Source: Candidatus Levyibacteriota bacterium
Lineage (GTDB): Bacteria; Patescibacteriota; Microgenomatia; Levybacterales; UBA12049
Direction: 5' to 3'
Length of the DNA stretch: 64,000 nucleotides
NCBI GenBank assembly: GCA_016214555.1
Contig: JACROF010000016.1
Coordinates: forward strand, 633 to 64,632
The notes below the pieces were generated by a model. That model searched no databases. It was not told the origin of the DNA and was given only the letters and a program-made list of their open reading frames with translations. The position numbers and the translations under genes were made by a program. Position 1 is the first letter of the stretch; every line of letters begins with the position of its first letter. This document shows, in pieces, positions 1,122 to 44,417 of the stretch.

Positions 1122-4100
1122 GTGCATCTTTTCTATACTTCCCTCATGACAGAACGAGGGCCAATTTTTGATCCCAGATCTACGCGTGAGCGAGGTTTGA
1201 CTTCATCCTCCCAAAGACCGTATGCTAATGATGGAGTATTGTCTATGGATAACATCAATCAAGAACAACGAGTTTGGGACCCCATTGATACGCCTGTAGC
1301 CGGTGGTGGCAATACTGGCGAAAGACGTCCGCCACAAAATCAGGATATTGTCGCCAGAACGCCTCAAGAAGTTGCTGCAAAAGCTGCATGGAGAGGCGCA
1401 TATGGTGGCATTTGGCCAACTGATCCAGAGGAGAGAAGGCATGTTGAGGAATTTATCAGAAATGGTCTGACTCCTGATGCACTGAGGGGGGCTATGTCAC
1501 AAGGCGGGGTTGGGCAACGACATCCTGAGCAAGGACCACAATCTCCAGGGATGATTGATCTTCCTGATTTTGTAACCGATGATGAAGGCAATGTTTATGC
1601 TCCTCTTGCAGGTAGTGAGCTTGCGCAGAGAGAGGCAATGCGAGAGGCAATGTCTGCTCCTGGAATAGCAATTGGATCTGATTCATCAGAAGGACTGCTG
1701 AGAAAGAATCAGCTAAGTGCTCAGGAGTTTGAGCAATTTCAGCGAGATTTGGAAAAAGGAAAATGGGTACCGGAAAAATTTCTTAGAGATAAAGACGTGT
1801 CTGGAGATCTCAAAATTAACTCAGTTGAGACACTTGCGTATCTTATTATGGACAAAGAGCAAGATGATGACTTTAAACCAGGAGGGGCTTTTGAGCTACT
1901 TAACAAAAAAGGAGAGTTTCAATCTCACAACTTCCTCCACTGGGTCAGAAATTGGATGATGTATTGGCACGGGGAAGCTCCTGATGCGAAGCATGATTTT
2001 GTCAATGAGATTAATGTCACAAAAGATTTTGGAGCACTTGCTCTTAAGCAAATGATTCAGTCACCAGGACGATTTTTTAGGAGCTGGAGGGCGGCAGGCC
2101 AGGGTACCAATGAGGATTTTCAGGTGTATAAAGAGCTCGTTGAGCAGATTAAAAGAGAGACATGGCTTTTTGGGGCAAGTAGAGAATTTGATATTGGGTA
2201 CAAGGAAAATATGGGAGCTGAGGAGCAACTCGCAAAAGTACTTCAGCAAATATTTTACCTTAATCCATTTACTAAGACTGTATGGGATCAAAAAAGTTCT
2301 CTGTATTGGATCATGAATATGCCGCAACGGTTTAAAAATGTTCCTGAAGGAGGCAGGCAAGGTGACTCAAATGCTGGGAGGGCTCTCAATACGGCCTATT
2401 TGGTCTATTACAATATCGCTGATGAGAAGATGCTCACAAGTCTCTTGGGTGAAAATACATCGTTACTAAATAGGGAAGCATTAAAGCATGCGGTCAAAAA
2501 GCAGATGGTGGAAGAGAAAATGACTCTTGTTAATGGGACTGTGCTTGATAAAGATTGCCTTGACAGGACAAAGTTTACTCAATCTCAAGTTGATGCCTAT
2601 ATTAATCAAGTGTCTGATGACGATATTGTTAAATATTTGTCGCCGGAGAACTTGCTAGAGCTTAATGGGAAAAAGGATATTACTGATTTTATTAATATCT
2701 TTAATCAACCTCAAAAATCATCACGAATTCAAAAGGTTGTTCGAACCATTATCCAGGATGAGCTCATTAAAAAATATGATCTCTATGTAAAAGATGTGGA
2801 TGGAAATTATGTCTATGAAACAGAGATTATTAAAGATGTGGATGGAAAGCCTACAAAGGATGAGTATGGTAATTACAGACGAAGGGAAGTCAAGCACAAG
2901 GCTGCAGATGGATCAGAGGGAGAGAGAGTTCGTAAAAAAGATACTACGACTGTTAGCTATGCAAATACTTTTGCGCTCTCTATGGCCAGGTGGACAGGAG
3001 CTGCTGCGCGAAATGATACATTTGCTGTTGGATTTGATGCGTGGTCTAAGCTTCAAAATACTGAGGAGTATCGAGCAAAGCAGGCAAGTCCAACCAGGAT
3101 TGGTGCCTTTGGCAATCCTAAAACGCTTCATATGTTTAAGCAGCTTGCAACAGACATGATGAATGGGACGATGGTCATGGATGGCAAAATGTCAATTGAA
3201 GTTTTGGAGGATATGCTGTCTGCCAGTGAAGGATCTCAAGAAGATTATTACAAGGCTTCTTCTCAGCTTGTATTTGCTGACAATACGATGCGGTCATTTA
3301 CTGTCGATCATATGAATAGAGTTTTTGCCATTTATGGACAGATTATGAATACCGAGGAAATAAAACTTGAAAAATTTGTCAAGCACGATCTTCTATACGG
3401 TCTTCAACTCGAAAGAGGTGCATTTGAAAAAGCACTTAAAGAAAACTTCTTCAAACCCATGCGTTATGCATGGTCTACCTATGCGGGGCTAGATCTCTCA
3501 AAAATGGTGCGTACTCATAACCCCTCTTATAAAGAATATCGAAAGCGATATAAAGAGGGCGATCCAAGACGGGATACTGATCCTAGGTGTCAGCCATATA
3601 TGGAAGTGCATCTTGCTGAGGCGATGTTTGGAAGAGAGCTTTTAGACATTGAAGCGTTTTGGCATAAGGAGAAAGATGCAGAGGGAAATGAGATAAAAGA
3701 CAAGGATGGGCATGCAATTGTGAGAAAAGACATTAAAGATATTAAAATAGATGCCAAAAATTGGGTTGATAAAATTGATTGGTCAAAGCTTGCAAGCAAG
3801 GAACATAAACATATGCTTTGGAGGAGAGCTGCATGGGGAAGAATTGCTGCTGAGATACACGCTCATCGCGATAGGCATAGTAGCGATCCAAAATACAATG
3901 ACTGGATCTATAACGAAGTTATCGAGGCACTAGAGACAATAGGTGATGGTGTCGGAGGAGATGAGTTCAATATGCAGAAATCAAGAGAGCAAGGAAAGAA
4001 TCTTAGTGAAGAGGAAATTCAGTGGATGCGTAAAAAAGCCGGAATAACTGAGGGGCAGATCATGAGAAGAGCGTTTTTTATGGACTTATTGCTTTCGCTC

Positions 4101-4154
4101 AAAGATACATTTAAAGATGTTGGAAAGGCTAGTATAAAAGGCGTAAAGCCATAA
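1122..4154 (+). CDS. large hypothetical protein (1010 aa; alternative ATG starts at 1146 or 1245); Gly/Pro/Arg-rich, GC-rich N-terminal ~190 aa, no TM or signal peptide seen
   Basis: long uninterrupted ORF; N-terminal 1140-1700 is noticeably more GC-rich than the rest; no recognisable catalytic motifs. Confidence 0.6.
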   Translation: MHLFYTSLMTERGPIFDPRSTRERGLTSSSQRPYANDGVLSMDNINQEQRVWDPIDTPVAGGGNTGERRPPQNQDIVARTPQEVAAKAAWRGAYGGIWPTDPEERRHVEEFIRNGLTPDALRGAMSQGGVGQRHPEQGPQSPGMIDLPDFVTDDEGNVYAPLAGSELAQREAMREAMSAPGIAIGSDSSEGLLRKNQLSAQEFEQFQRDLEKGKWVPEKFLRDKDVSGDLKINSVETLAYLIMDKEQDDDFKPGGAFELLNKKGEFQSHNFLHWVRNWMMYWHGEAPDAKHDFVNEINVTKDFGALALKQMIQSPGRFFRSWRAAGQGTNEDFQVYKELVEQIKRETWLFGASREFDIGYKENMGAEEQLAKVLQQIFYLNPFTKTVWDQKSSLYWIMNMPQRFKNVPEGGRQGDSNAGRALNTAYLVYYNIADEKMLTSLLGENTSLLNREALKHAVKKQMVEEKMTLVNGTVLDKDCLDRTKFTQSQVDAYINQVSDDDIVKYLSPENLLELNGKKDITDFINIFNQPQKSSRIQKVVRTIIQDELIKKYDLYVKDVDGNYVYETEIIKDVDGKPTKDEYGNYRRREVKHKAADGSEGERVRKKDTTTVSYANTFALSMARWTGAAARNDTFAVGFDAWSKLQNTEEYRAKQASPTRIGAFGNPKTLHMFKQLATDMMNGTMVMDGKMSIEVLEDMLSASEGSQEDYYKASSQLVFADNTMRSFTVDHMNRVFAIYGQIMNTEEIKLEKFVKHDLLYGLQLERGAFEKALKENFFKPMRYAWSTYAGLDLSKMVRTHNPSYKEYRKRYKEGDPRRDTDPRCQPYMEVHLAEAMFGRELLDIEAFWHKEKDAEGNEIKDKDGHAIVRKDIKDIKIDAKNWVDKIDWSKLASKEHKHMLWRRAAWGRIAAEIHAHRDRHSSDPKYNDWIYNEVIEALETIGDGVGGDEFNMQKSREQGKNLSEEEIQWMRKKAGITEGQIMRRAFFMDLLLSLKDTFKDVGKASIKGVKP

Positions 4155-4170
4155 TTATTCTTACCTCTTT

Positions 4171-5832
4171 TTATGACTTTCGTTTTCCTGTGTAGTGCTC
4201 GAAGCCTCTCTCATACCTTCCATAATTACTATCTCCTAAGAATCTATTGATAAAACCCCTTTTTCGTATTCTTGTAGCCCATGTGCCCGCACGACCTTTA
4301 TGGGGATCAAATTCAAATGATCTCTTTATGTATGCTCGTGGACCGGCAAGTGCTGGAGCAAATCCTCTGCCAAATCCTCCCTGTATAGCGCCGCTGACCA
4401 ATTTGTTAGGTTCTGAGTGGAATGTCTGGCGAGTGATAGTGAGGACTTCAGGAGTAATAAGAAGAATGGCAACAACAAGGACTCCTTGAATATGATTGGT
4501 GATTGCTGGGTTTCCAATAAGTGGAGGGAGATAGTAGGTGCCAGCAGGAGCAGTAGCGTTATTAAGATCATAGGTTGGGATAGTAGAGACAACGCGTGCT
4601 GCGACAAAGAAAAATGCTGTCACAGGGAAAACAGATAAATGGGCGAGCATATATCTAAGCCATGCAGTAAAACCATATTTGCTTCCGGGGATAAGCCCTG
4701 CTCCAATATAAAGTGGGGCAAGCATAGTCCCAATGAGAGTGTAGGCATAAGCTCGAAGGAGCGCAAACCATAACCTCACCATAGCATAAAGGAGAGCAAA
4801 AAGGATAACAACTGTAAAAAGTATATCTGCAATAACCTTGACAATTCCATGGAGAATTGATTGAGCACATGATCCAAGTGTGTTCCAAAAATCTGCAGAG
4901 CAATTTCCGTCTTTGAGATCTAAAGTTTCGGTGATGGTATCAGCAATAATATTTCCAATAGTCCCACCCGCGTCAATTGAGGTGCCTGTAATACCATCGA
5001 AGCTTCCCTGGCATCCTGTTGAGTTCCCAAATAACTCATTGAGGTAGACAATGGGGTTGTTGAGAAGTTGGCGATTGGCTGCTGCTTTGATAGCTTCGCT
5101 TTGATGAGTTTCAAGAGACGTAAGGTTGTTAGGATCTTGAGGATCGGTGCAACTTACTTTATCCGGGACTAAAATACTGATGCCGGTATAGGTGCTAAAC
5201 CACATCGCGTCCACCAAAAGACCTGCTATAGAAAAAGAAAACGTAATAAAAATAAGCGTGAGGACAATTTTGGGAAGTTGATTTTGGATAGACATTACAG
5301 TCTGGGGATTTATCTTAACTCTTAGCATAATGCCCATGCCTATAAAGACAAAAAGAAGGACCATCGCAACAAAGGTGATATTGCGAAGCTTAAGCCACAT
5401 CTCTTGAAGTGGGCTTAATTTATCAAAGCCTGTATTTTGAGCGTAAGTTTGTTTGGCTATGCCAAAATTGTTGGCAAAATATTTCATCGACTCAGACGTT
5501 GAGACTGGTTTTTGATACATAAAACCAATCATATTAGTCATTGTCCCGACAACACCGCCTATTTTTTGCTGAGAAGGAGCGGTCTCTAAATTTCCTGAGG
5601 CAGGGTTAATGCCTACGCATTCTGCTTGAGGATTGACGATATCGATTCCAGACAAAAAACATCCAATGGCAGAGCTCATATTGATGAGAATTTTTTGCAT
5701 GTCAACGCTGGTTGAGGTGGAGGTGGGCACAAGTGAGGTCTGTGCGTAGATTGGTGATGCGGTTCTACCTTGTACAGCAAAAAACACAAGAAGAAGCATG
5801 ATGCATGAAATGATTTTTATGGGCAGTCGCAT
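4171..5832 (-). CDS. polytopic membrane protein with N-terminal signal/anchor, ~110-aa extracytoplasmic segment, 6-7 TM helices and basic C-terminal tail; VirB6/TrbL-like topology (weak inference)
   Basis: hydrophobic segments IISCIMLLLVFFAV, ITFVAMVLLFVFIGMGIML, IVLTLIFITFSFSIAGLLV, ILFTVVILFALLYAMVRLWF, LIGTMLAPLYIGAGLI, VFPVTAFFFVAARVV, VLVVAILLITPEVL; convergent with the 1010-aa ORF. Confidence 0.6.
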   Translation of the reverse strand: MRLPIKIISCIMLLLVFFAVQGRTASPIYAQTSLVPTSTSTSVDMQKILINMSSAIGCFLSGIDIVNPQAECVGINPASGNLETAPSQQKIGGVVGTMTNMIGFMYQKPVSTSESMKYFANNFGIAKQTYAQNTGFDKLSPLQEMWLKLRNITFVAMVLLFVFIGMGIMLRVKINPQTVMSIQNQLPKIVLTLIFITFSFSIAGLLVDAMWFSTYTGISILVPDKVSCTDPQDPNNLTSLETHQSEAIKAAANRQLLNNPIVYLNELFGNSTGCQGSFDGITGTSIDAGGTIGNIIADTITETLDLKDGNCSADFWNTLGSCAQSILHGIVKVIADILFTVVILFALLYAMVRLWFALLRAYAYTLIGTMLAPLYIGAGLIPGSKYGFTAWLRYMLAHLSVFPVTAFFFVAARVVSTIPTYDLNNATAPAGTYYLPPLIGNPAITNHIQGVLVVAILLITPEVLTITRQTFHSEPNKLVSGAIQGGFGRGFAPALAGPRAYIKRSFEFDPHKGRAGTWATRIRKRGFINRFLGDSNYGRYERGFEHYTGKRKS

Positions 5833-5891
5833 ACGAAGAACTATCTTAAGTGTGGGTTATTGTGATGGTTTTTGTCAAGTTTAGGACAAAA

Positions 5892-5918
5892 GAAAAACGC
5901 CGCGGGGATACCGCGGCG
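5892..5918 (-). terminator. rho-independent terminator for the 5990..6358 gene (minus sense CGCCGCGG-tatcc-CCGCGGCG then T-run)
   Basis: perfect 8-bp GC stem at 5898-5905/5911-5918; A-run 5892-5897 on the plus strand equals a T-run on the transcribed strand. Confidence 0.6.
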
Positions 5919-5989
5919 TAATGTTGTAGTGAAAAGACAGACCCGCCATTTGCGGACTTGCCTTCTTTCAATGTCTCAGCATAGGCCAT

Positions 5990-6358
5990 TTATCGGGCTT
6001 CTCTGATGAGAGCCAGTTGGTATGTAGCCCGTAGCATAAGTACAAGCAAAGTGAACCCAAGTCCTCCCTTGAGCATATACGATGAGAGTGTGGGGTCGAA
6101 TTTCTCAACATAGATTGATCCAATGGCGACAAATATGCCAAAGCCCCATAGATTTTTGATCGAAATCCAGAGCAATGGAAGAAAACCCTTCCATACTAGC
6201 TTGAGACTAAGAATAAAGAGCCATATGGCAAAGGTAAAACAGAACGTTAGCACCCATTCAATAATGCCATCAGCTGAAGGGGCTTCGTATCTTGTTACTG
6301 AAAACGAGTCAATAAAGCCTCCTTCATTATCACGAATTTCGTAATGCTTGGTAGGCAT
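5990..6358 (-). CDS. small 3-TM membrane protein, paralog A (MPTKHYEIRDNEGGFIDSFSV...)
   Basis: ORF; N-terminal 20 aa and ~50 nt nearly identical to the neighbouring paralog. Confidence 0.6.
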   Translation of the reverse strand: MPTKHYEIRDNEGGFIDSFSVTRYEAPSADGIIEWVLTFCFTFAIWLFILSLKLVWKGFLPLLWISIKNLWGFGIFVAIGSIYVEKFDPTLSSYMLKGGLGFTLLVLMLRATYQLALIREAR

Positions 6359-6433
6359 TGACGGTTTTCCTTTCTCTCGTGCTCCTACCTGTGTAGGATG
6401 CTTGTTGTGCCGATTTCGGCTGTCTTTTGGTGA

Positions 6434-6799
6434 TTAACCCCTGAGATGTTCAAGTGTTGCACTACACATTGCATAGAAGATTCGTAGGATCGCAATGAAG
6501 CAAAAAAACGCAAACCCTCCCCAGAGCATAAGAGATGCCATGTGGGGGTCTGTGTTCTTGAAATAGATGGAGCCAATAGAAATAAATATGCCAAATCCCC
6601 ATAGGTGTTTAAGAGATATCCACGCCAGGGAAAAAAAGAATTTTACAGTGAGCTTGAGAAGCCACCAGGTAAAGGTAAAAATGAAAATTGAGATCCACCC
6701 AATGGCGTTATCAACTGATGGAAATTCATAACTCGTTACTGAAAACGAGTCAATAAAGCCTCCTTCATTGTCACGGATTTCGTAATGACGTGTACCCAT
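6434..6799 (-). CDS. small 3-TM membrane protein, paralog B (start trimmed to MGTRHYEIRDNEGG...; track ORF extends to 6838)
   Basis: paralogy with 5990..6358; ATG at 6797-6799 gives equal 122-aa lengths. Confidence 0.55.
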   Translation of the reverse strand: MGTRHYEIRDNEGGFIDSFSVTSYEFPSVDNAIGWISIFIFTFTWWLLKLTVKFFFSLAWISLKHLWGFGIFISIGSIYFKNTDPHMASLMLWGGFAFFCFIAILRIFYAMCSATLEHLRG

Positions 6800-7010
6800 C
6801 TTTTTCTCCATTTCTTTTTGCAACCCTTTGCACCACACTGGCGCAAGTTGGCAGCAGCCTTGCCCTTTTTATCAAGAGAAAAGCTGCTGCCAGGGTTAAT
6901 CAACTGCTTGTTAAAGTACAAATGTAAGAAAATAATATCATGCTAGCCTCAGTCTAACATAAAATTCTTCTTTGTAAAGCGTATAGCTAGCTGAAGAGAT
7001 CTATAGGTAG

Positions 7011-7253: not shown

Positions 7254-7280
7254 ATTAAGCTCTCCTTCGCGATCTACTAA

Positions 7281-7315
7281 GCGGACTTTGTCCGCCGTAG
7301 CTCGCTTCGGCGAGC
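7281..7315 (-). promoter_or_regulatory. two adjacent hairpins between tRNA-Ser(GGA) and the GIY-YIG gene: GCGGAC-ttt-GTCCGC and GCTCGC-ttcg-GCGAGC (tetraloop)
   Basis: seen in sequence; the same GCGGAC-N3-GTCCGC motif recurs at 7939-7953 downstream of tRNA-Ser(CGA). Confidence 0.4.
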
Positions 7316-7318
7316 GAA

Positions 7319-7406
7319 GGCGGAGGTGGTGGGATTCGAACCCACGTGAGCGTGAAGCTCACAGCATTTCCAGTGCTGCGCCATGGACCAGCTAGGCGAC
7401 ACCTCC
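7319..7406 (-). tRNA. tRNA-Ser(GGA), long variable arm
   Basis: reverse complement GGAGGTGTCGCCTAGCTGGTCCATGGCGCAGCACTGGAAATGCTGTGAGCTTCACGCTCACGTGGGTTCGAATCCCACCACCTCCGCC; cloverleaf with anticodon loop cuGGAaa. Confidence 0.8.
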
Positions 7407-7487
7407 TCGTCGAAATAACTCCTTATCGCTCCACTTTGCTTTTTAAAAAAAGTTTCGCTTCATGGAGTTTTTCTCCTCTTCAAAATG

Positions 7488-7919
7488 CTACGCATTTTGA
7501 GTGAATATATATTCTTTTGCTTCTTCCCAAACTGCCTTATCTGTTTTAAAAGTAAGGCGATTTTCAACGTCATTGCTATCGATCCACTCTACATTTTCCA
7601 TCTCAAAGTCATGTTGGGTAGTATCTCCTGAGACAAATCTCATGACGAAAAAATAAACTGTCTTTTTATTTTTTTCTCCCTCCCAAGCGTACCAATATGT
7701 TTGTGGGGAAAGAGTGTGGATAATCTCGCCAATGATGCCTGTTTCTTCTTTGACTTCTCGAAGAGCAGTTTCTTCTTTTGATTCTGACTTGTTTGTGTCT
7801 CCAATCAATCCTTTTGGAAAGCCCCATCCATGATGTCCAGAATGCTGCGCGACAAGAACAAGCGTTTGATTGCCTTTTTTTTGAAAAACTACTCCTCCAG
7901 CTGAAAATTCAAATTTCAT
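7488..7919 (-). CDS. NUDIX hydrolase
   Basis: Nudix box GX5EX7REVKEETGI (GDTNKSESKEETALREVKEETGI). Confidence 0.85.
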   Translation of the reverse strand: MKFEFSAGGVVFQKKGNQTLVLVAQHSGHHGWGFPKGLIGDTNKSESKEETALREVKEETGIIGEIIHTLSPQTYWYAWEGEKNKKTVYFFVMRFVSGDTTQHDFEMENVEWIDSNDVENRLTFKTDKAVWEEAKEYIFTQNA

Positions 7920-7938
7920 ATACTTATAATCTCATCAA

Positions 7939-7953
7939 GCGGACATCGTCCGC
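7939..7953 (-). promoter_or_regulatory. GCGGAC-atc-GTCCGC hairpin ~20 nt upstream of the Nudix start codon, downstream of tRNA-Ser(CGA)
   Basis: second copy of the motif found at 7281-7295. Confidence 0.35.
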
Positions 7954-8043
7954 CGAAGGTCGCCCAAAATTGATGCTCATATCTTTATTATGGCACGAAC
8001 TTATATCTATCATGTCGCCTTCGCTAAAGCTATGGCGACCGAA

Positions 8044-8134
8044 GGCGGAGAGGGGGAGATTCGAACTCCCGGTTCGCCATATGGCGAACAGCGGTTTTCG
8101 AAACCGCAGCACTAGACCACTATGCGACCTCTCC
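8044..8134 (-). tRNA. tRNA-Ser(CGA), long variable arm
   Basis: reverse complement GGAGAGGTCGCATAGTGGTCTAGTGCTGCGGTTTCGAAAACCGCTGTTCGCCATATGGCGAACCGGGAGTTCGAATCTCCCCCTCTCCGCC. Confidence 0.8.
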
Positions 8135-8209
8135 TTATAATTCCTTACCGTTTATTACTGTCCAATCTGTGAGACCATCTCCCTTACGGGAGTCTTCGCT
8201 CACGCTTGA

Positions 8210-8223
8210 TATGCGACCTCTCC
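8210..8223 (-). repeat. 14-nt copy of the 5' end of tRNA-Ser(CGA) (GGAGAGGTCGCATA), abutting the 3' CCA of tRNA-Arg and 75 nt upstream of the full Ser gene
   Basis: TATGCGACCTCTCC occurs at 8121-8134 and 8210-8223. Confidence 0.6.
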
Positions 8224-8224
8224 T

Positions 8225-8301
8225 TGGTACTCTCGAGAAGATTCGAACTTCCGACCTCAACGTCCGCAACGTTGCGCTCTATCCAACTGAGCTACGAGAG
8301 T
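8225..8301 (-). tRNA. tRNA-Arg (anticodon read as GCG; CCA encoded)
   Basis: reverse complement ACTCTCGTAGCTCAGTTGGATAGAGCGCAACGTTGCGGACGTTGAGGTCGGAAGTTCGAATCTTCTCGAGAGTACCA; Arg-type D-arm. Confidence 0.7.
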
Positions 8302-8427
8302 AAAACGGTAAACGATTTTATCCTATAAAAGTAACAAAAAGCAATAAAAATGAACAAATAAATACTATATAGTTTGTAGGATAAATACTATGCGTATTGT
8401 ATCGAATTCTCAAAAACGAATCAAATA

Positions 8428-9018
8428 CTAGGCAGGATTATTTCTTTTTCTGTCGAGTGGGAAATTTTTTTCAAGCCAGCTTGAGGCATTTTCCATAAAA
8501 GTTGGTTTCATGTATTCTCGATAGGGCAAGAAGGGAAGCAGTACGTCTCTTATGTGATCCTTGTGCATTTCCCCCAAAACAATCGTTAGTTCTCCTGGAT
8601 ACCATTGCTTGGTGCCTATGATAAGAACGTCAGCGCCATGTTGCTTTTTAAAGTAAAAATCATAAAGTTCCTGCCAGAGGTAAAAATGATCCTGAACCAT
8701 AACACCCTCTGTTGTTACTTTGTAATGAAAATCATGGGGGGGGATACTGTTGAGGGCATAGGCCAGAAATGCGAGCGTGAGAACAAGAACCATCAAAAGA
8801 TATTGAGAAAAAAGGAAAAGAATAATTTCTACCAGAAGCATGATAATAAGAATATTGAGAAAAAATTCTTTCGTTCTTTTTTGAAATGGTCTTCCGGGAG
8901 CAGCCCAAGAGACAAGGGTCTGGATTTGATAGCCATTAAAGGACTGGTCTTGTTGTCCTATGTGCTCGGGAAGGAGTTTTTCATCAGGGGCAGAAAGTAG
9001 TTTTTCAGGCAGATCCAT
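8428..9018 (-). CDS. membrane protein with two TM helices followed by a soluble domain; hypothetical
   Basis: ORF; hydrophobic hairpin ILIIMLLVEIILFLFSQYLLMVLVLTLAFLAYAL. Confidence 0.55.
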   Translation of the reverse strand: MDLPEKLLSAPDEKLLPEHIGQQDQSFNGYQIQTLVSWAAPGRPFQKRTKEFFLNILIIMLLVEIILFLFSQYLLMVLVLTLAFLAYALNSIPPHDFHYKVTTEGVMVQDHFYLWQELYDFYFKKQHGADVLIIGTKQWYPGELTIVLGEMHKDHIRDVLLPFLPYREYMKPTFMENASSWLEKNFPLDRKRNNPA

Positions 9019-9132
9019 ATATGTATAGTATTAGAATTCTCTCTCGTGCGTCAAGTAAAGGGCAGACTGCTTGTTCTTACGTCTTTAGATCTGATATACT
9101 TTGTATCTGTTTTGGGATATAGTTAGCTTATT

Positions 9133-9219
9133 GGAGAGGTCGCATAGTGGTCTAGTGCGGATGTCTTGAAAACATCTGAGGGTTCACGCCTTCCGCGAGT
9201 TCGAATCTCGCTCTCTCCG
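9133..9219 (+). tRNA. tRNA-Ser(TGA), long variable arm
   Basis: GGAGAGGTCGCATAGTGGTCTAGTGCGGATGTCTTGAAAACATCTGAGGGTTCACGCCTTCCGCGAGTTCGAATCTCGCTCTCTCCG. Confidence 0.8.
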
Positions 9220-9230
9220 CATATAGCGAG

Positions 9231-9860
9231 ATGAGAAGCAAGGTCCCCCGGAGGGGGAAATCTCGCTCTCTTTGCCAAATACCTTTACAAATCTTCTATT
9301 GGGTTGTCTTTCCTATAGTATTCTGCTATGATCCTACGCATTATTCGCTCTTTATCAAGGAGAAGAAATTCGTGGTTACCGATAAGCAGATCGCTGCTCT
9401 TAAGTATCTCATCTTTCATTCAAAGCAAGGAAAGCCTCTTTCCAAGCAAATTCTTGCCTTTCTTTTAGATGGGTCAAAGAATCTGACAAGAGAGGTATAT
9501 GTGACGCTGTGGCCGATAAGCGAATATACGCCCAAAGAGGTTCGAGATAGTGCCATAGGCATAGATGCTATGAAGAGCCCCAATGGCTCAACGCACCTAA
9601 ACGAAGTCATGGACGCAATGGGAACAGAGTTCGGCTTTGATATTCACTATGGGCATTTCCATGAGGGTGACTTTATCACGGCGGGACAATTTCCAGGATT
9701 GCCAAGTAGAGAGTGTCATCCCTTTGGTCTTCCGGCCCGATATACCTTTTGGTGCTCACCACATCGCTACTCTGACACTGCAGAGCCTCTTTTGGTGACG
9801 CGAGCAGAGCTTGAGGCAATTGACCTTAAAAAGCCAGGCCTCTACCCAACGCTTGAGTAG
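9231..9860 (+). CDS. hypothetical protein with His/Cys-rich C-terminal half (HYGHFHEGD, CHPFG, FWCSPHRY); the true start is probably internal, e.g. GTG at 9372 after AAGGAG
   Basis: the ORF begins inside the tRNA-flanking repeat region; an SD-like AAGGAG lies at 9351-9356. Confidence 0.45.
   Translation: MRSKVPRRGKSRSLCQIPLQIFYWVVFPIVFCYDPTHYSLFIKEKKFVVTDKQIAALKYLIFHSKQGKPLSKQILAFLLDGSKNLTREVYVTLWPISEYTPKEVRDSAIGIDAMKSPNGSTHLNEVMDAMGTEFGFDIHYGHFHEGDFITAGQFPGLPSRECHPFGLPARYTFWCSPHRYSDTAEPLLVTRAELEAIDLKKPGLYPTLE
9259..9271 (+). repeat. 13-nt direct repeat of the tRNA-Ser(TGA) 3' end (AATCTCGCTCTCT; other copy at 9204-9216); a CCCCC-gga-GGGGG hairpin lies between the copies
   Basis: seen in sequence. 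Confidence 0.55.
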
Positions 9861-9930
9861 TTTTTTTACGATCCTTGATTGAATAATACATACCCGTCTA
9901 GTAACGAAAGTGAACGACGGGTTTTTCATG

Positions 9931-9966
9931 CAAAAAAGCTCCGGTAAACGGAGCTTTTTTATTTTT
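9931..9966. terminator. bidirectional rho-independent terminator (AAAAAAGCTCCG-gtaaa-CGGAGCTTTTTT) between the 9231..9860 gene and the hsp20 gene
   Basis: 7-bp stem flanked by an A-run and a T-run. Confidence 0.75.
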
Positions 9967-9976
9967 ACCCTAAGAG

Positions 9977-10411
9977 TTAGGCAGTAGCTTTTGCTTTTTT
10001 AGCTACTTTGATTTTTTTAGGTTCTGCCTTTTGTACTTTTTTGAATATTAAGTGCAGAACGCCATTGTCTAGCTCTGCTTGGGGTTCCTCTTCTGCTTCG
10101 ACGCCTTGTGGGAGACGGAATGAGTAGTTGTAGGACTGAGCCATAGACGTCATAAAGTAACGCCTTTTATCTTTGTCCTCCTGCTTTTGTTCATGAGTAG
10201 CAGTAATTCTGACTACTCCCTCATCAATTGAGACATCGACTTTATCCTCAGGGATGCCAGGTAGCGCTGCCTCGGCTACGATTGCGTCCTCTGTTTCATA
10301 GAGATTAAGTCCCTGTCCTGCTAGGCGCGAGATGCCAGGGATTGTTGGAAGATCCCAGTCGTCCTCAAGCATTGATTGGATGTTCCATGGGTTCCATCTA
10401 ATGATTGCCAT
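9977..10411 (-). CDS. Hsp20/alpha-crystallin family small heat-shock protein
   Basis: NLYETEDAIVAEAALPGIPEDKVDVSIDEGVVRITA...GVLHLIFKK matches the alpha-crystallin domain pattern. Confidence 0.85.
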   Translation of the reverse strand: MAIIRWNPWNIQSMLEDDWDLPTIPGISRLAGQGLNLYETEDAIVAEAALPGIPEDKVDVSIDEGVVRITATHEQKQEDKDKRRYFMTSMAQSYNYSFRLPQGVEAEEEPQAELDNGVLHLIFKKVQKAEPKKIKVAKKAKATA

Positions 10412-10472
10412 TTTTTCTCACCTCCTCGTATTAGCACTTTTATATCACGAGTGCTAACATCTTGTCAAGTGG

Positions 10473-11183
10473 TTAGATTGTAAAAAGTGTGCCAATGAGG
10501 TAGGCAAGTAATGAGGCTATTGACCCAACAGCTACGATCTCCAGGATTGAGCGTAGCATAGTTTCTCTGGTAATTCTCCAGCGTAAAATTCCCAAAAGGA
10601 CGAGCGCAGAAAAGGTAGCAATAAGCGAGTTGGTAAATGCATATTGTGTTGATGAGGTAGAGAAAAAGGGAAGAAGCGGGATAGAGCCAAAAAAGATAAA
10701 TGATGCAAGCGTTGCAATGCCTGTGTAGATTGGATTTTCCCCAAGGGGATTTGCGAGCTCTAGCTCGTGGCTGAGCATGAATTGTGCCCAGTATTTTTTA
10801 TTTTTGCTATAGATCGATGCTAACTTTTCGGCTTCTTCTTTTGAAAAATCTTTTGTGAGTAGCAAATTGATTGTTTGTTCTTTTTTCTTTTCTGGATCTG
10901 ATGAGATTTCTTGAAGCTTTCTTTTTTGCTCTGTTTTATACATATCTTGCTCGGAGCGCAGGGAAAGAAAATTTCCAAGCCCCATAGATGCACCATCAGC
11001 AAATAGATTTGCAAATCCGAAAAGAAAAACTGTAAGAAAAGAATACTGAGGGATATTGTTACCAAGACTTGCTCCAGTAAATCCTGCAACAACTGCAAAT
11101 GTGGTAACAATACCGTCATTACCACCATAAACAATTTCTTTAAGATAGGTTTGAAGCGGAGAAATTTTTGACTTTGAGTCCAT
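10473..11183 (-). CDS. VIT1/CCC1 family (DUF125) iron/manganese transporter-like membrane protein; start set at MDSKSK
   Basis: [19 protein letters not shown] motif; the upstream part of the track ORF overlaps a tRNA-derived repeat. Confidence 0.7.
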
Positions 11184-11203
11184 AGAAAGATTATACAGGA
11201 AAA

Positions 11204-11223
11204 TGCGGAGGAGACAGGATTTG
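11204..11223 (-). repeat. 20-nt direct repeat of the tRNA-Ser(GCT) 3' end (other copy 11318-11337), 95 nt downstream of the tRNA
   Basis: TGCGGAGGAGACAGGATTTG occurs twice. Confidence 0.65.
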
Positions 11224-11319
11224 GTCACAAGTTCTCGCTCACGCGATCCTCGCAACCCCGCCTCCTTCAGGTTCGCAGGCTCACCATCAGTCCGGCATTC
11301 AAATCCAGTCAGGCAAGTG

Positions 11320-11410
11320 CGGAGGAGACAGGATTTGAACCTGCGCGAGCCCTTTTAGAGGCTCAGAGGCTTAGCATGCCCCCGCAATGGACCAACTATG
11401 CGACTCCTCC
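11320..11410 (-). tRNA. tRNA-Ser(GCT), long variable arm
   Basis: reverse complement GGAGGAGTCGCATAGTTGGTCCATTGCGGGGGCATGCTAAGCCTCTGAGCCTCTAAAAGGGCTCGCGCAGGTTCAAATCCTGTCTCCTCCG. Confidence 0.75.
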
Positions 11411-11493
11411 TATTCAAAATGCTTAGCATTTTGATCCATCAAAGATAAGAAAAACATTATAGCATTTGTAAGAAGATTTGTTACACTGAGTCT

Positions 11494-13845: not shown

Positions 13846-14160
13846 CTATAGGACTAAATAAGGTGTTTGTTGCGGAAGGGCACCTAGAGTTCGTGAGAGG
13901 ATGGATTTTAACTGCCTTCTCCCATAACCGCTTTTAAGAAATTCTTCTCGAGCCTTAGCGTCATCTTCATTTATAAAATATTCGTAATGGATGAGCTTAA
14001 CTGGGAGGCGGGCATGCGTTGCGGGAACATTACCTTGAATGTGAGTTTTTATTCTAGTTTTGAGATTGCTCGTGAAGCCGATATAAAGACCCTTGTCTTT
14101 GAGACTATGAAGAATATAGACATAGAAATGTCTTTTTGAAACGTCTGACGTTTCAGTCAT
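13846..14160 (-). CDS. GIY-YIG nuclease family small protein (second copy)
   Basis: FYVYILHSLKDKGLYIGFTSNLKTRIKTH...; about 100 nt 3' of the tmRNA. Confidence 0.8.
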   Translation of the reverse strand: MTETSDVSKRHFYVYILHSLKDKGLYIGFTSNLKTRIKTHIQGNVPATHARLPVKLIHYEYFINEDDAKAREEFLKSGYGRRQLKSILSRTLGALPQQTPYLVL

Positions 14161-14259
14161 ATGATGTTTTTTGGTGTCGCGTCAAACGCGATCACCGCGT
14201 CAATTATAACAAAAAACGCGACCTCCTCTTCTTGCGAAGAGCGAAGCCGCGTTTGACGC

Positions 14260-14672
14260 GGTGGAGATGTCCGGGTGTGATCCGGAGTCCGAAAAAGTGT
14301 CTTACTAACATCTACAAGCGTAGTTGATTATTTTTGTGTCGCTTTCCCGTGGCCAGTCAACAGGTATAAGAAAGTCTACGTTTTAAAAATCTGGTATCAC
14401 ACAAAACGAGATGTGATCCTTGACCCAACTGTTTTATGCTCATAATGTCCCGTTGGGAAAGACATCATAAACATTCCTTAGTGCTTAAGCTAGTGCGTAA
14501 GCGGGTCGGAAACCTCCAAGGTTAGAGAGTTCTGCCAAAATGGCGTCACGCTCTGCCTTCAAGGCTGAAATGCTGTTTTTAGCATTTATTTTTGATCTTC
14601 TTTTTACGACTTAAAGATCAGCGTCGGCTTGCAGTTATTAAGGTACTATATCCGTCGAATCAAATCATCCCC
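14260..14672 (-). ncRNA. ssrA: tmRNA (ssrA), ~413 nt; tag reading frame ends ...GGFRPAYALA-UAA
   Basis: 5' end GGGGAUGAUUUGAUUCGACGG resembles E. coli GGGGCUGAUUCUGGAUUCGACGG; 3' end GGACUCCGGAUCACACCCGGACAUCUCCACC resembles GGACGCGGGUUCAACUCCCGCCAGCUCCACCA; lies in an ORF-free gap directly downstream of smpB. Confidence 0.8.
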
Positions 14673-41918: not shown

Positions 41919-44276
41919 ATGGAAATACAGTCATTACTTATTACGTTTTTTGGAGGTATTTTTCTTATCGCTTTAATAGTACTTGTTCTTCTTGCGATAG
42001 GGTATATGGTGTTGTTGTGGATGAGGAACAAAGGGCGTGAGGCTGAGTCGCTTAGTTCGGTATTAATGCAGGTATCATTGCCTCGAGATAATGAGATTAA
42101 AATTGATGCAGCAGAGCAATTATTTGCGAGCCTTGCATCGCTTCGAAAATCAAAGAGATTAGATTATTTTAGTAGACAGCCACACGTTTCATTTGAAATT
42201 GTAGGCACCCCAGGCGATGTAAGGTTTTATATCAATGTCCCCATAAAGTTAAAAGATTTTATTGAGAAACAGATTAATGGATCATATCCAGACGCAGAAA
42301 TTGTTCAAGTAAATGATCCTGCTGCTAAGCAAAAAGAAAATGCGACAATTGCAGGTGAATACAATATTTTTTCCGATGCAGGAAAGGTTGCTTTTGCTTC
42401 CTTATCCCTTAAGCACGATGATTTTAAGCCGATCAAAGTCTTCAAAGACTTAGCCGTTGATTCGATGGCATCGGTTACATCTGTTCTTGCCAAAATGGGT
42501 GAAGGAGAAGGCGCTGCAATTCAGATACTTATTCAACCTGCAAATCCAAGATGGAAAGAGTCGGGGAAAGCATATCTTTCTAAGACAAAAAAGAATGAGT
42601 CAAATCCTGAGACCGCAAAGTACTCCTCTGATGCAAAAGAGCTTGAGGCGATCGAGAATAAACTGAGTAAACCTGGGTTTAACACAATAGTTCGACTTGT
42701 GGTTTCTTCAAGCTCCAAAGAAGCAGCAGATGCACATTTGAGCAATCTTATCGGTTCGTTTTCTCAGTACTCAGGAGTAAACATGTTTGGGAAAAATAAA
42801 CACTGGCTTAAAGGTCTTTTTGTTACTGATTTCATCTATCGCTATTTCCCTATGAGAGGACACACATCTGTCTTGACAAGTGATGAGCTAGCTACCATTT
42901 TTCATTTTCCTAATAAAAGTGTTCAAACGCCAGGAATTCATTGGGTGACCTCAAAAAGAGCTCCAGCTCCGGCAAGTATCCCAACTGAAGGGCTCTACCT
43001 TGGCAAGAGCACATTTCGAGGCATTAGTCGGCCTGTCTTTATTCAGGAATCAGATAGACAACGACATATGTATATCATTGGGAAAACTGGTACCGGAAAG
43101 TCAGAATTTCTCAAGCAATCTATCATGCAGGATATCAAAAATGGGGAAGGACTAGCAGTTATCGATCCTCATGGTGATTTAATTGAAGATATTCTTCAGC
43201 TTATGCCCCCTGAGAGGTCTGAGGATGTTATTCTTTTTGATCCATCTGATCTTGAACAACCGCTTGGTTTTAATATGCTTGAGGCTCAAAACGAGCAGCA
43301 GAGACATTTGGTTGTGACATCAGTTATTGGACTTATGTACAAACTATTTGATCCTAACAAAACGGGAATTATTGGACCTCGATTTGAACACGCTGTTAGG
43401 AATGCGATGCTTACGTGTATGTATCAGCCTGGAGCTACTTTTATGGAGGTAGTTCGCGCCCTCACTGACCCCGCTTTCGTCCAGGAGCTTTTGCCACGAG
43501 TTGAAGACCCTGTTATCAGAAGATATTGGACAGATCAGATTGCTCAGACGAGTGATTTTCACAAATCTGAAGTGCTTGATTATATCGTTTCAAAATTTGG
43601 TCGTTTTGTTACCAATAAAATGATTAGAAACATCATAGGTCAGTCAGAAAGTGCTTTTAATTTTAGAGAGGCGATGGATACCAAAAAGATTCTTCTTATC
43701 AATCTTTCAAAAGGAAAAATTGGCGAAGAGAACTCAAGCTTTTTGGGGCTCATTCTTGTGCCAAAGATTTTGGTTGCTGCAATGTCGCGACAGGATATGC
43801 CTATGGAAGATCGCAAGAACTTCTTCCTTTATGTTGACGAGTTTCAGAATTTTGCTACACCTGATTTTGCCCAAATTCTTTCAGAGGCTCGAAAATATCG
43901 CCTTAATTTGATCGTTGCCAATCAGTTTGTTGGACAGATGGAGGAGGAGGTCAAGAATGCTATTTTTGGAAACGTAGGAACAATTGCCGCTTTTCGAGTA
44001 GGTGTTACTGATGCCAATTATCTTCAGCACGAGTTTCAGCCTGTTTTTACGGAGGCCGATTTGATAAATATAGATAGATTTAATTGTTATATGAGGACTA
44101 TTGTTGGTGGCGAGCCTGTCCCTCCTTTTTCACTCGACACGACAAAGGATGTCGAGGCTGAAAAAAGGATGCGTGATCCTCGAGTTGCAGAGCTTGTCAA
44201 AGAATTGTCTCGTCTTAAGTATGGTCGTAATGCACAGATTGTCGAGGCTGAGATTGCTCAACGGTCGCGACTTTAA
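41919..44276 (+). CDS. membrane-anchored P-loop ATPase of the HerA/VirB4/VirD4 (T4SS-type, DUF87-like) clade
   Basis: N-terminal TM ITFFGGIFLIALIVLVLLAIGYMVLLW; Walker A IIGKTGTGKS at ~aa 388; VIDPHGDL; Walker B LYVDEFQNF about 250 aa later. Confidence 0.7.
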   Translation: MEIQSLLITFFGGIFLIALIVLVLLAIGYMVLLWMRNKGREAESLSSVLMQVSLPRDNEIKIDAAEQLFASLASLRKSKRLDYFSRQPHVSFEIVGTPGDVRFYINVPIKLKDFIEKQINGSYPDAEIVQVNDPAAKQKENATIAGEYNIFSDAGKVAFASLSLKHDDFKPIKVFKDLAVDSMASVTSVLAKMGEGEGAAIQILIQPANPRWKESGKAYLSKTKKNESNPETAKYSSDAKELEAIENKLSKPGFNTIVRLVVSSSSKEAADAHLSNLIGSFSQYSGVNMFGKNKHWLKGLFVTDFIYRYFPMRGHTSVLTSDELATIFHFPNKSVQTPGIHWVTSKRAPAPASIPTEGLYLGKSTFRGISRPVFIQESDRQRHMYIIGKTGTGKSEFLKQSIMQDIKNGEGLAVIDPHGDLIEDILQLMPPERSEDVILFDPSDLEQPLGFNMLEAQNEQQRHLVVTSVIGLMYKLFDPNKTGIIGPRFEHAVRNAMLTCMYQPGATFMEVVRALTDPAFVQELLPRVEDPVIRRYWTDQIAQTSDFHKSEVLDYIVSKFGRFVTNKMIRNIIGQSESAFNFREAMDTKKILLINLSKGKIGEENSSFLGLILVPKILVAAMSRQDMPMEDRKNFFLYVDEFQNFATPDFAQILSEARKYRLNLIVANQFVGQMEEEVKNAIFGNVGTIAAFRVGVTDANYLQHEFQPVFTEADLINIDRFNCYMRTIVGGEPVPPFSLDTTKDVEAEKRMRDPRVAELVKELSRLKYGRNAQIVEAEIAQRSRL

Positions 44277-44339: not shown

Positions 44340-44411
44340 GGGTGTGTAGCTCAGTGGTAGAGCGCTATCCTTATAAGATAGATGTCCTTGGTTCGATCCC
44401 AAGCACACCCA
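44340..44411 (+). tRNA. tRNA-Ile with anticodon TAT (UAU)
   Basis: GGGTGTGTAGCTCAGTGGTAGAGCGCTATCCTTATAAGATAGATGTCCTTGGTTCGATCCCAAGCACACCCA; anticodon loop cuUAUaa. Confidence 0.75.
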
Positions 44412-44417
44412 CAAAGA

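Follow-up and report, generated by a model that had tools for sequence, protein, structure and literature searches.

The 64 000-nucleotide stretch of Candidatus Levyibacteriota DNA analysed here (contig JACROF010000016.1; hereafter the window) carries four tRNA-Ser isoacceptor genes and a tRNA-Arg gene between 7.3 and 11.4 kb, and three of the serine genes are accompanied by displaced copies of one of their own ends. We favor, with a probability of roughly one half, the interpretation that these repeats are the orphan ends of duplicative insertions of small noncoding, hairpin-forming cassettes into this Ser/Arg tRNA cluster. The cassettes have a common layout in which the tRNA end (X) is followed by a short spacer, an inverted copy (X'), a loop or core and a direct copy of X, with the X':X hairpin distal to the tRNA. 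They measure about 45–115 nt, with noncoding inserts of 38–115 nt, and the terminal direct copy of X keeps the old junction to the neighboring gene. X' pairs with the orphan X, and the resulting hairpin replicates the T stem in 3' cassettes and the acceptor stem in 5' cassettes; a segment complementary to the orphan copy is always present between it and the tRNA. The matches retrieved with an Hsp20 gene within the region are in metagenome-assembled genomes of Candidatus Levyibacteriota [candidate phyla radiation (CPR)/Patescibacteria; 62–78% identity].

ARAGORN and Rfam placed the tRNA genes within about 4 kb, where the initial annotation had put them (Table 1), and the three exact copies that it had reported near their own tRNAs were all recovered. 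As described, tRNA-Ser(CGA) has a copy of its 5' end 75 nt upstream, which begins 1 nt past the tRNA-Arg CCA; this exact repeat measures 16 nt rather than 14 nt (8210–8225 and 8121–8136), as it comprises 14 nt of the tRNA and two flanking nucleotides. The 5' end of Ser(TGA) is identical to the same 14 nt. The 13-nt copy of the Ser(TGA) 3' end (9259–9271 and 9204–9216; 16 of 19 positions with the degenerate tail) begins 38 nt, not 42 nt, past the 3' end of the gene given by ARAGORN. The 20-nt copy of the Ser(GCT) 3' end (11204–11223 and 11318–11337), 95 nt downstream as stated, extends to 26 of 28 positions (11196–11223 versus 11310–11337) and so takes in 8 nt of trailer; it abuts a TATAAT sequence (11190–11195) and the start of the VIT1 gene. 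For each tRNA we determined the longest exact match within its 150-nt flanks, and for five tRNAs compared it with 1000 flank shuffles each. This match is 16, 13 and 20 nt for the three serine tRNAs versus 6–7 nt for the other six tRNAs of the window, and tRNA-Ile, two tRNA-Met, tRNA-Asn and tmRNA have no end copies in their flanks. Shuffled flanks typically gave 6–8 nt and reached at least 13 nt in one of 5000 trials, no shuffle gave three tRNAs with matches of this length, and random 300-nt pieces of the window gave a maximum of 11 nt. The three copies are real and not a product of chance.

About 50 related loci (labeled by L-numbers such as L005 or L079) were collected by three routes: from genome contigs, by a metagenome scan and by look-ups of close homologues. 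The query of the metagenome scan was the 196-aa membrane protein encoded at 8428–9018, the closest homologues of which were then looked up; all comparison data are metagenome-assembled contigs. The closest relative of the window is L079, in which the neighboring membrane protein is 81% identical. Because the same tRNA set surrounds the 196-aa protein in nearly all of these loci [Ser(TGA), Arg(GCG) and Ser(CGA), often with Ser(GGA), Ser(GCT) and Arg(CCG), in variable order and orientation], the clustering is an old and conserved ancestral trait of the clade that was not made by cassette events.

Exact local copies of at least 11 nt of a tRNA's own end were found for 17 tRNA-Ser and one tRNA-Arg among 137 distinct tRNA contexts, counted with neighboring tRNA genes masked, and further cassettes occur in closer relatives, including one at the tRNA-Arg of L085. 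The 3' copies always start in the T loop (AATC..., around A58) and end at the tRNA 3' end or up to 8 nt past it, 38–95 nt downstream, such that the left boundary of the duplication is fixed and the right boundary is variable. The 5' copies (15 such duplications were counted) correspond to nucleotides 1 to 10–14 of the tRNA and lie 32–75 nt upstream. The duplications are 11–28 nt in length, and none of more than 30 cases in the window and its relatives has an open reading frame (ORF) between the repeats. A cassette is missing from about 85% of the tRNA-Ser contexts. Decay is seen in some copies (the tail of the window Ser(TGA) copy, one mismatch in the Ser(GCT) copy of L080 and a heavily decayed Ser(GGA) copy in the same locus), as expected if they are not essential.

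Empty and filled sites both occur in related genomes, and by alignment the cassettes are insertions, in which case the events would have run from the empty to the filled state. L020 differs from L021 and L043 by a clean 71-nt insertion, consisting of 53 nt and an 18-nt duplication, and L020 and L021 align on both sides of this block, through tRNA-Ser(TGA) as well as the downstream promoter and gene start. Comparison of L079 with L091 reveals about 100 nt inserted between a conserved promoter-like TCTGATATACTTTG box and the 5' end of tRNA-Ser(TGA). Of 26 spacers between Arg(GCG) and Ser(CGA), 17 do not exceed 30 nt (seven are 1–4 nt long), and all five of 59–127 nt, including the 90 nt of the window, hold a cassette. 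The orphan copy retains the ancestral junction: it lies 1 nt past the tRNA-Arg CCA in the window, which is the ancestral Arg–Ser spacing, and 2–3 nt before the next tRNA in L023 and L025. The initial annotation had suggested that orthologous loci might contain elements inserted at these tRNAs, or else that the repeats might belong to conserved leader or terminator structures present at all of them. Insertion polymorphism was found, of small cassettes without cargo and not of large elements; the copies do lie in conserved structured flanking elements, yet these are absent from most orthologous loci.

The same annotation had proposed that the repeats are scars of repeated integrase-mediated integration and excision. 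As an explanation, attL and attR sites of a tyrosine-integrase island or prophage that was later almost wholly deleted are very improbable and now largely refuted. The cassettes do resemble tRNA-integrating elements (tyrosine-integrase prophages, islands, and integrative and conjugative elements) in being inserted within a tRNA gene that is regenerated, in having empty sites in relatives and in their direct repeat, which at 9259–9271 and 11204–11223 begins in the T loop and covers the 3' end, sometimes with a few nucleotides more, as is reportedly the case for att identity blocks of the T-loop class at tRNA genes. The window also encodes a Xer-like tyrosine recombinase, and in one relative (L091, also labeled L088) a mobile-element-like block at 2211–6974 with a small resolvase, a DnaG-type Zn ribbon, a Toprim primase and a 543-aa large serine recombinase abuts the tRNA-Ser(TGA) gene at its 3' end. 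However, the repeat at 8210–8223 is nucleotides 1–14 of its tRNA, 5'-end duplications occur in 15 cases, and integrase att duplications do not produce 5'-end copies. The 38–95 nt between the repeats contain neither integrase nor cargo, nor anything of kilobase scale, and belong to structured families conserved across genomes instead of resembling random deletion remnants. Each cassette holds an inverted copy matched to its tRNA and paired with the orphan copy, which is not expected at att junctions, and identical cores are found at tRNAs with different stems, the stem being matched each time. The L091 island has no cassette and no second tRNA-end copy on its 7.9-kb contig. The other suggestion of the initial annotation, a targeted micro-duplication process at serine tRNA genes, fared better: the copies are linked to insertion, accompany regeneration of the tRNA and have empty and filled sites, although they are not the residues of ordinary elements.

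The main 3' family, represented in the window by the Ser(TGA) cassette, has the order X', GAGAAG, an optional variable hairpin, a short purine-rich linker, UCCCC-loop-GGGGA, A and the direct copy, and the GAGAAG...UCCCC/GGGGA core is invariant in all 15 members. A covariance model (R1) built from six natural members gave 18 matches with E < 0.01 in 443 kb, every one directly 3' of a tRNA; no match was found away from tRNAs in the 443 kb or elsewhere in the 64-kb window. Its targets are all four serine isoacceptors and, in L085, also tRNA-Arg(GCG). The X':X helix (P1) is 96% paired in the alignment fitted to this model, with five of eight pairs changing on both sides and a score reached by none of 500 shuffles. 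P1 consists of the five T-stem pairs of the adjacent tRNA and two loop-derived pairs, often with at least one extra pair into the acceptor strand. Compensatory changes also occur in P2 (GGTTC/GAACC versus GCTTC/GAAGC) and P3 (CCCT/AGGG versus TGCT/AGTA). A plain copy of the T-stem 5' strand, as left by tandem duplication of the 3' 30 nt, was considered for X' and rejected: in the window, L081, L001 and L085 the pairing of X' goes past the T stem, and where X' can be distinguished from the 5' strand of the tRNA itself (the window, L081, L001 and the Arg cassette of L085) the two sequences differ. X' is thus a true complement of the orphan copy. In L085 (5667–5801), the T stem of tRNA-Arg(GCG) has an A·C mismatch (GGAGG/CCCCC) and the X' of its GAGAAG cassette (GGGGG) is perfectly complementary to the 3' strand, which hints at concerted evolution of the cassette copies with the tRNA 3' end, to the detriment of the stem of the tRNA itself.

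In Rfam 15 only tRNA and tmRNA reached threshold, and no family matched over any cassette even at E values of up to 10. Hammerhead, twister, pistol and hairpin ribozymes, considered for the GAUGAG and CUGAUGG strings, were discarded on account of misfits in core nucleotides and junction order and the lack of an Rfam match. A small ORF starting from an AUG within GAUGAGAAG was likewise rejected, as its reading frame is not kept between L021 and L043. Scans of viral contigs for the cassette core gave chance matches only, in coding regions without tRNA context, and provide no evidence for a phage donor.

The grouping of cores follows the genome or extends across isoacceptors, and does not follow tRNA identity. 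Those of L085 [Arg, Ser(CGA), Ser(GGA) and Ser(GCT)] are 81–95% alike; the L081 Ser(GGA) core groups with those of L043 and L032 Ser(TGA), and the window Ser(TGA) core with L015 Ser(GCT) and L085 Ser(GGA). X' and X match the local tRNA in every cassette, whatever the core. Because cores cross tRNA identity while X' and X do not, the core would appear to move between tRNA genes, with its stem specified anew from each target, as in a copy-and-paste process at the DNA level that copies the target in both orientations. Neither strand folds better than the other in the main 3' family or in the 5' hairpins (12 versus 12 and 13 versus 12 G·U pairs); this negative test for sense-strand bias in the main families fits stems made by DNA copying and not by long selection on a transcript. 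The entry point of a 3' cassette would be the T loop, where the left boundary is constant at about A58, and that of a 5' cassette would be about nucleotides 11–14; the tRNA would be regenerated beside the cassette and the original end displaced, with its old junction to the neighboring gene kept. The transferred part would be the core (GAGAAG, the optional variable hairpin and UCCCC-loop-GGGGA), and the X':X hairpin may keep the orphan end from competing with the folding of the real tRNA. The process might begin with nicking or breakage of the T loop and proceed by template-switch or fold-back synthesis, or it might consist in recombination of a folded single-strand hairpin, as in attC or CTX-phi. 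Cassettes of this kind may be selfish or neutral.

Template switching could also act without any element, through fork stalling at highly transcribed, hairpin-prone tRNA genes that leaves direct and inverted micro-duplications (quasi-palindromes). The X...X'...X layout, the perfect Watson–Crick stems on both strands, the fixed left and variable right boundaries and the tandemly repeated 5' units in L041, L086 and L088 all fit such replication errors. The explanation is nevertheless improbable, as the cores, invariant in 15 of 15 cases, have no source in the local tRNA or flank and recur in several genomes and at several tRNAs, and the tRNA-Ile, tRNA-Met, tRNA-Asn and tmRNA genes of the window show no copies.

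Several points weigh against duplicative insertion. We found neither an enzyme nor an autonomous parent of the cassettes, and saw no circular or free forms and no copies remote from tRNAs; respecification of X' at each new target is explained by no known mechanism. GAGAAG and UCCCC/GGGGA are invariant across genomes in which the flanking protein is only 50–70% identical, and look like motifs under purifying selection in a functional RNA or binding site. In presumed orthologous pairs (L021/L043, L023/L025 and window/L079), X' and X are 100% conserved, the cores are 80–93% identical and the flanks are at random level; together with the compensatory changes in P2 and P3, this pattern is compatible with in situ selection or with gene conversion by the tRNA. 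The Ser(GCT) cassette folds with −31 kcal/mol in the tRNA sense versus −19 kcal/mol in the other, with five G·U pairs, a bias that points to RNA-level structure for that family. Finally, the metagenome-assembled contigs offer no strain-level polymorphism for the three cassettes of the window, the closest relative being the one with 81% protein identity.

The conservation of X' and X, the compensatory changes and the sense bias of the Ser(GCT) cassette would fit a rival reading, in which the cassettes are host-functional RNA modules: cotranscribed leader or trailer structures (a T-arm mimic with the acceptor 3' strand, or an acceptor-stem mimic) that arose by local partial duplication and in which selection or gene conversion maintained the match to the tRNA. 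Roles in pre-tRNA processing, 3'-end protection or termination, or insulation from a downstream promoter can be envisaged, as can a decoy or binding site for a factor that recognizes tRNA ends, for example RNase P, RNase Z, the CCA-adding enzyme or a toxin. Invariant junction nucleotides with an optional variable stem are typical of structured RNAs, and all four serine tRNAs of the window have a trailer hairpin of which the 3' strand imitates the tRNA 3' end. We consider this explanation unlikely, though clearly ahead of att scars and replication errors, for several reasons: most tRNA-Ser contexts lack a cassette and include clean empty sites where the tRNA abuts the next promoter, decaying copies exist, the main families show no strand asymmetry, no Rfam family matches, and core sharing between different tRNAs would still require a transfer mechanism. 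A consensus scan also found no sense-strand intrinsic terminator (U-run) at the three window cassettes, the single match (9244–9260) being on the antisense strand.

Several known systems share features with the cassettes, and a literature search found no description of such cassettes. The X...X'-loop-X layout is that left by recombination of a folded single-strand hairpin, as in integron attC sites and the XerCD-dependent attP hairpin of CTX-phi. As in these systems, the stem imitates a duplex target, structure is conserved more than stem sequence, and the elements are small, noncoding and mobilized in trans. They differ in having no integron integrase, attI or cassette ORFs, no identified R or L boxes (none were recognized by eye) or extrahelical bases, and a tRNA T loop or D region as target. 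The Xer-like recombinase encoded in the window is a further parallel, but a role for it in cassette insertion would be purely hypothetical. Miniature inverted-repeat transposable elements are likewise short, noncoding and patchily distributed, with several near-identical copies per genome (as in L085) flanked by duplicated target. In the cassettes, however, the duplication is long and variable instead of a fixed-length target-site duplication, the inverted repeat is target (tRNA) sequence and not an element-borne terminus, and the copies are confined to the tRNA gene ends of one cluster and not dispersed. The 178-bp units of E. coli tyrT, each reportedly ending with the 3' 19 nt of tRNA-Tyr, are also tRNA 3'-end copies just downstream of the gene, but they are tandem products of unequal recombination in which neither an inverted copy nor a hairpin occurs, and they do not form a family spanning several genomes. 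Minihelices and external guide sequences that mimic the T arm and acceptor strand are recognized by RNase P, RNase Z and the CCA-adding enzyme. The 3' cassettes similarly combine a T-stem mimic with the acceptor 3' strand and discriminator, and the 5' cassettes mimic the acceptor stem, but the T loop is replaced by an unrelated core and the acceptor strand is unpaired in most cassettes. It is conceivable, although we hold it only tentatively, that the cassettes are a new kind of tRNA-targeting element, with a 30–80-nt core that enters the T loop or D region, rebuilds the tRNA and makes its stem from the target (via a folded single strand, a nick-primed template switch or an enzyme yet to be named), and/or that GAGAAG/UCCCC-GGGGA defines a new class of structured RNA on CPR pre-tRNAs.

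The other flanking structures vary on the same theme. The Ser(GCT) 3' cassette is orthologous in L079, with 71 of 76 core positions identical and two of the five substitutions restoring or improving predicted pairs. The Ser(CGA) 5' cassette has an A/T-rich, −10-like stretch adjoining the tRNA, a match that is too close to +1 in a promoter scan. Related 5' cassettes in L005 (at all four serine tRNAs), L015, L020, L041, L047, L080, L081, L086 and L088 consist of an acceptor-stem mimic (GGAGRGG...CYCUCC), a variable closing hairpin and an A/T-rich −10-like stretch. In the Ser(GGA) trailer, the 5' strand of the second hairpin (GGCGGA) complements the tRNA 3' end TCCGCC and the 3' strand (GTCCGC) imitates it; the trailer is a 6–7-nt version of the X–X'–X layout. 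This type recurs in relatives, usually before a small GIY-YIG gene. The Ser(CGA) trailer belongs to the same family with about 65 nt extra, and the GCGGAC-NNN-GTCCGC hairpin is found in the trailers of those two window serine tRNAs that have no long 3' copies. The segment at 7473–7500 copies the leader hairpin and first nucleotides of tRNA-Ser(GCT) and is possibly a fourth orphan 5' fragment. A near-identical 21-nt palindrome (TCAAAATGCnnAGCATTTTGA) lies at 7480–7500, over the stop codon of a NUDIX gene, and at 11414–11434, and related units of TTTCTCCTCTT and a palindrome occur in the trailers of L029 and L081.

Table 1. Features of the window (and, for the additional serine tRNA, of related loci) discussed in the text
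Feature	Position	Strand	Remarks
tRNA-Ser(GGA)	7319–7406	−	ARAGORN + Rfam
tRNA-Ser(CGA)	8044–8134	−	ARAGORN + Rfam
tRNA-Arg(GCG)	8225–8301	−	ARAGORN + Rfam; CCA encoded
tRNA-Ser(TGA)	9133–9220	+	ARAGORN + Rfam
tRNA-Ser(GCT)	11319–11410	−	ARAGORN + Rfam
Ser(TGA) 3' cassette, GAGAAG family	9221–9276	+	Covariance model 66.7 bits, E ~1e-13
Spacer ATAT	9221–9224	+	Part of Ser(TGA) cassette
X' AGCGAGAT	9225–9232	+	Ser(TGA) cassette; complement of T-loop end and T-stem 3' strand
Core GAGAAGCAAGG-TCCCCC-GGA-GGGGGA	9233–9258	+	Ser(TGA) cassette
Orphan copy AATCTCGCTCTCT	9259–9271	+	Ser(TGA) cassette; decayed tail TTGCC
Ser(GCT) 3' cassette	11224–11318	−	Longer and different core; same X–X'–core–X layout
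TGGATTTG	11300–11307	−	Ser(GCT) cassette; complementary to T loop
X' GGAGGCGGG	11257–11265	−	Ser(GCT) cassette; pairs (including G·U pairs) with CCUGUCUCC of orphan copy
Inner hairpin, GUGA tetraloop	11224–11256	−	Ser(GCT) cassette
Orphan copy of Ser(GCT) 3' end	11196–11223	−	20 nt exact at 11204–11223; 26/28 overall
Leader palindrome TCAAAATGCTAAGCATTTTGA	11414–11434	−	3 nt upstream of tRNA-Ser(GCT); conserved in L079, with compensatory changes
Palindrome TCAAAATGCGTAGCATTTTGA then AGAGGAG	7473–7500	−	67 nt upstream of tRNA-Ser(GGA); 25/28 copy of 11407–11434
Orphan copy of tRNA-Ser(CGA) nt 1–14	8210–8223	−	Exact repeat 16 nt, 8210–8225
Ser(CGA) 5' cassette, 75 nt	8135–8209	−	Between orphan 5' end and regenerated tRNA-Ser(CGA)
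GUGA-loop hairpin	8194–8207	−	Ser(CGA) 5' cassette
Hairpin GACTCCC-GTAA-GGGAG	8179–8194	−	Ser(CGA) 5' cassette
Degenerate third copy of tRNA 5' end, GGGAGATGGTCTCACAG	8167–8183	−	Ser(CGA) 5' cassette
Ser(GGA) trailer, two hairpins	7279–7318	−	GCTCGC-CGAA-GCGAGC 7300–7315; GCGGAC-AAA-GTCCGC 7281–7295
Ser(CGA) trailer	7937–8043	−	GGTCGCC...GGCGAC 8014–8040; A/T-rich stretch; CTTCG-GCGGAC-GAT-GTCCGC 7939–7953
Additional tRNA-Ser(ACT)	L005 6053–6138; L006 5491–5576; L018 3675–3762; L020 1829–1916		ARAGORN
Stand-alone GIY-YIG nuclease, 80 aa	7011–7253	−	Directly downstream of tRNA-Ser(GGA)
Second small GIY-YIG gene	13846–14160	−	
tmRNA	14260–14672	−	Predicted tag peptide AKNSISALKAERDAILAELSNLGGFRPAYALA, 32 aa, unusually long
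Protein of 553 aa	4171–5832	−	Weak TrbL/VirB6 match; adjoins the two membrane paralogues, beside tRNA cluster
Two tandem paralogous small membrane proteins	5990–6358; 6434–6838	−	Both begin ...TKHYEIRDNEGGFIDSFSVT...
VirD4/TrwB-like coupling protein	41919–44276		Just upstream of tRNA-Ile(TAT)
tRNA-Ile(TAT)	44340–44412	+	5 nt from Xer-like recombinase gene
Xer-like tyrosine recombinase, 286 aa	44418–45278	−	Phage_integrase and SAM-like N domain

The order and orientation of the tRNA genes in the cluster differ widely between relatives while the protein genes stay put. In several relatives, tRNA-Ser(TGA) and its cassette are inverted relative to the gene of the 196-aa membrane protein (window 9133–9220 compared with L081 3798–3885, L018, L020, L021, L037 and L044). 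The duplicated tRNA ends may mediate such rearrangements within the cluster. Four relatives have an additional tRNA-Ser with anticodon ACT beside tRNA-Ser(GCT) according to ARAGORN; serine tRNAs with A34 are unusual in bacteria.

Small GIY-YIG genes (78–104 aa) lie directly downstream of a tRNA-Ser, at 62–139 nt and on the same strand, in seven of nine distinct cases (the two of the window and those of L002, L006, L019, L023, L041 and L051), and one further gene lies downstream of tmRNA. They usually follow a CTTCG/CTACG-GCGGAC-NNN-GTCCGC hairpin. These genes could be free-standing homing-type cassettes and are a candidate source of breaks at tRNA genes. The tmRNA trailer (14161–14259) has inverted repeats of its own (GCGTCAAACGC/GCGTTTGACGC). 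VIT1 (11183–11195, minus strand) apparently begins 6 nt after its TATAAT box (CTGTATAATCTTTCTATG), a spacing that suggests a leaderless mRNA; the distance from the −10 element to ATG of the 196-aa gene in L020 and L021 is similar.

CPR bacteria have few cultured models and little is known of the biology of their mobile elements. Should the cassettes prove mobile, no smaller element that targets and regenerates tRNA genes would be known, and they would be the first with a recognition stem rebuilt from each target, which would imply a new copying or recombination mechanism in these bacteria. If they are functional RNAs, they would establish a new conserved motif linked with the ends of tRNAs in organisms whose RNA-processing machinery is reduced. 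In either case, short att-like repeats near the tRNAs of these genomes should not be taken for prophage scars, and the covariance model can be used for a survey of Patescibacteria.

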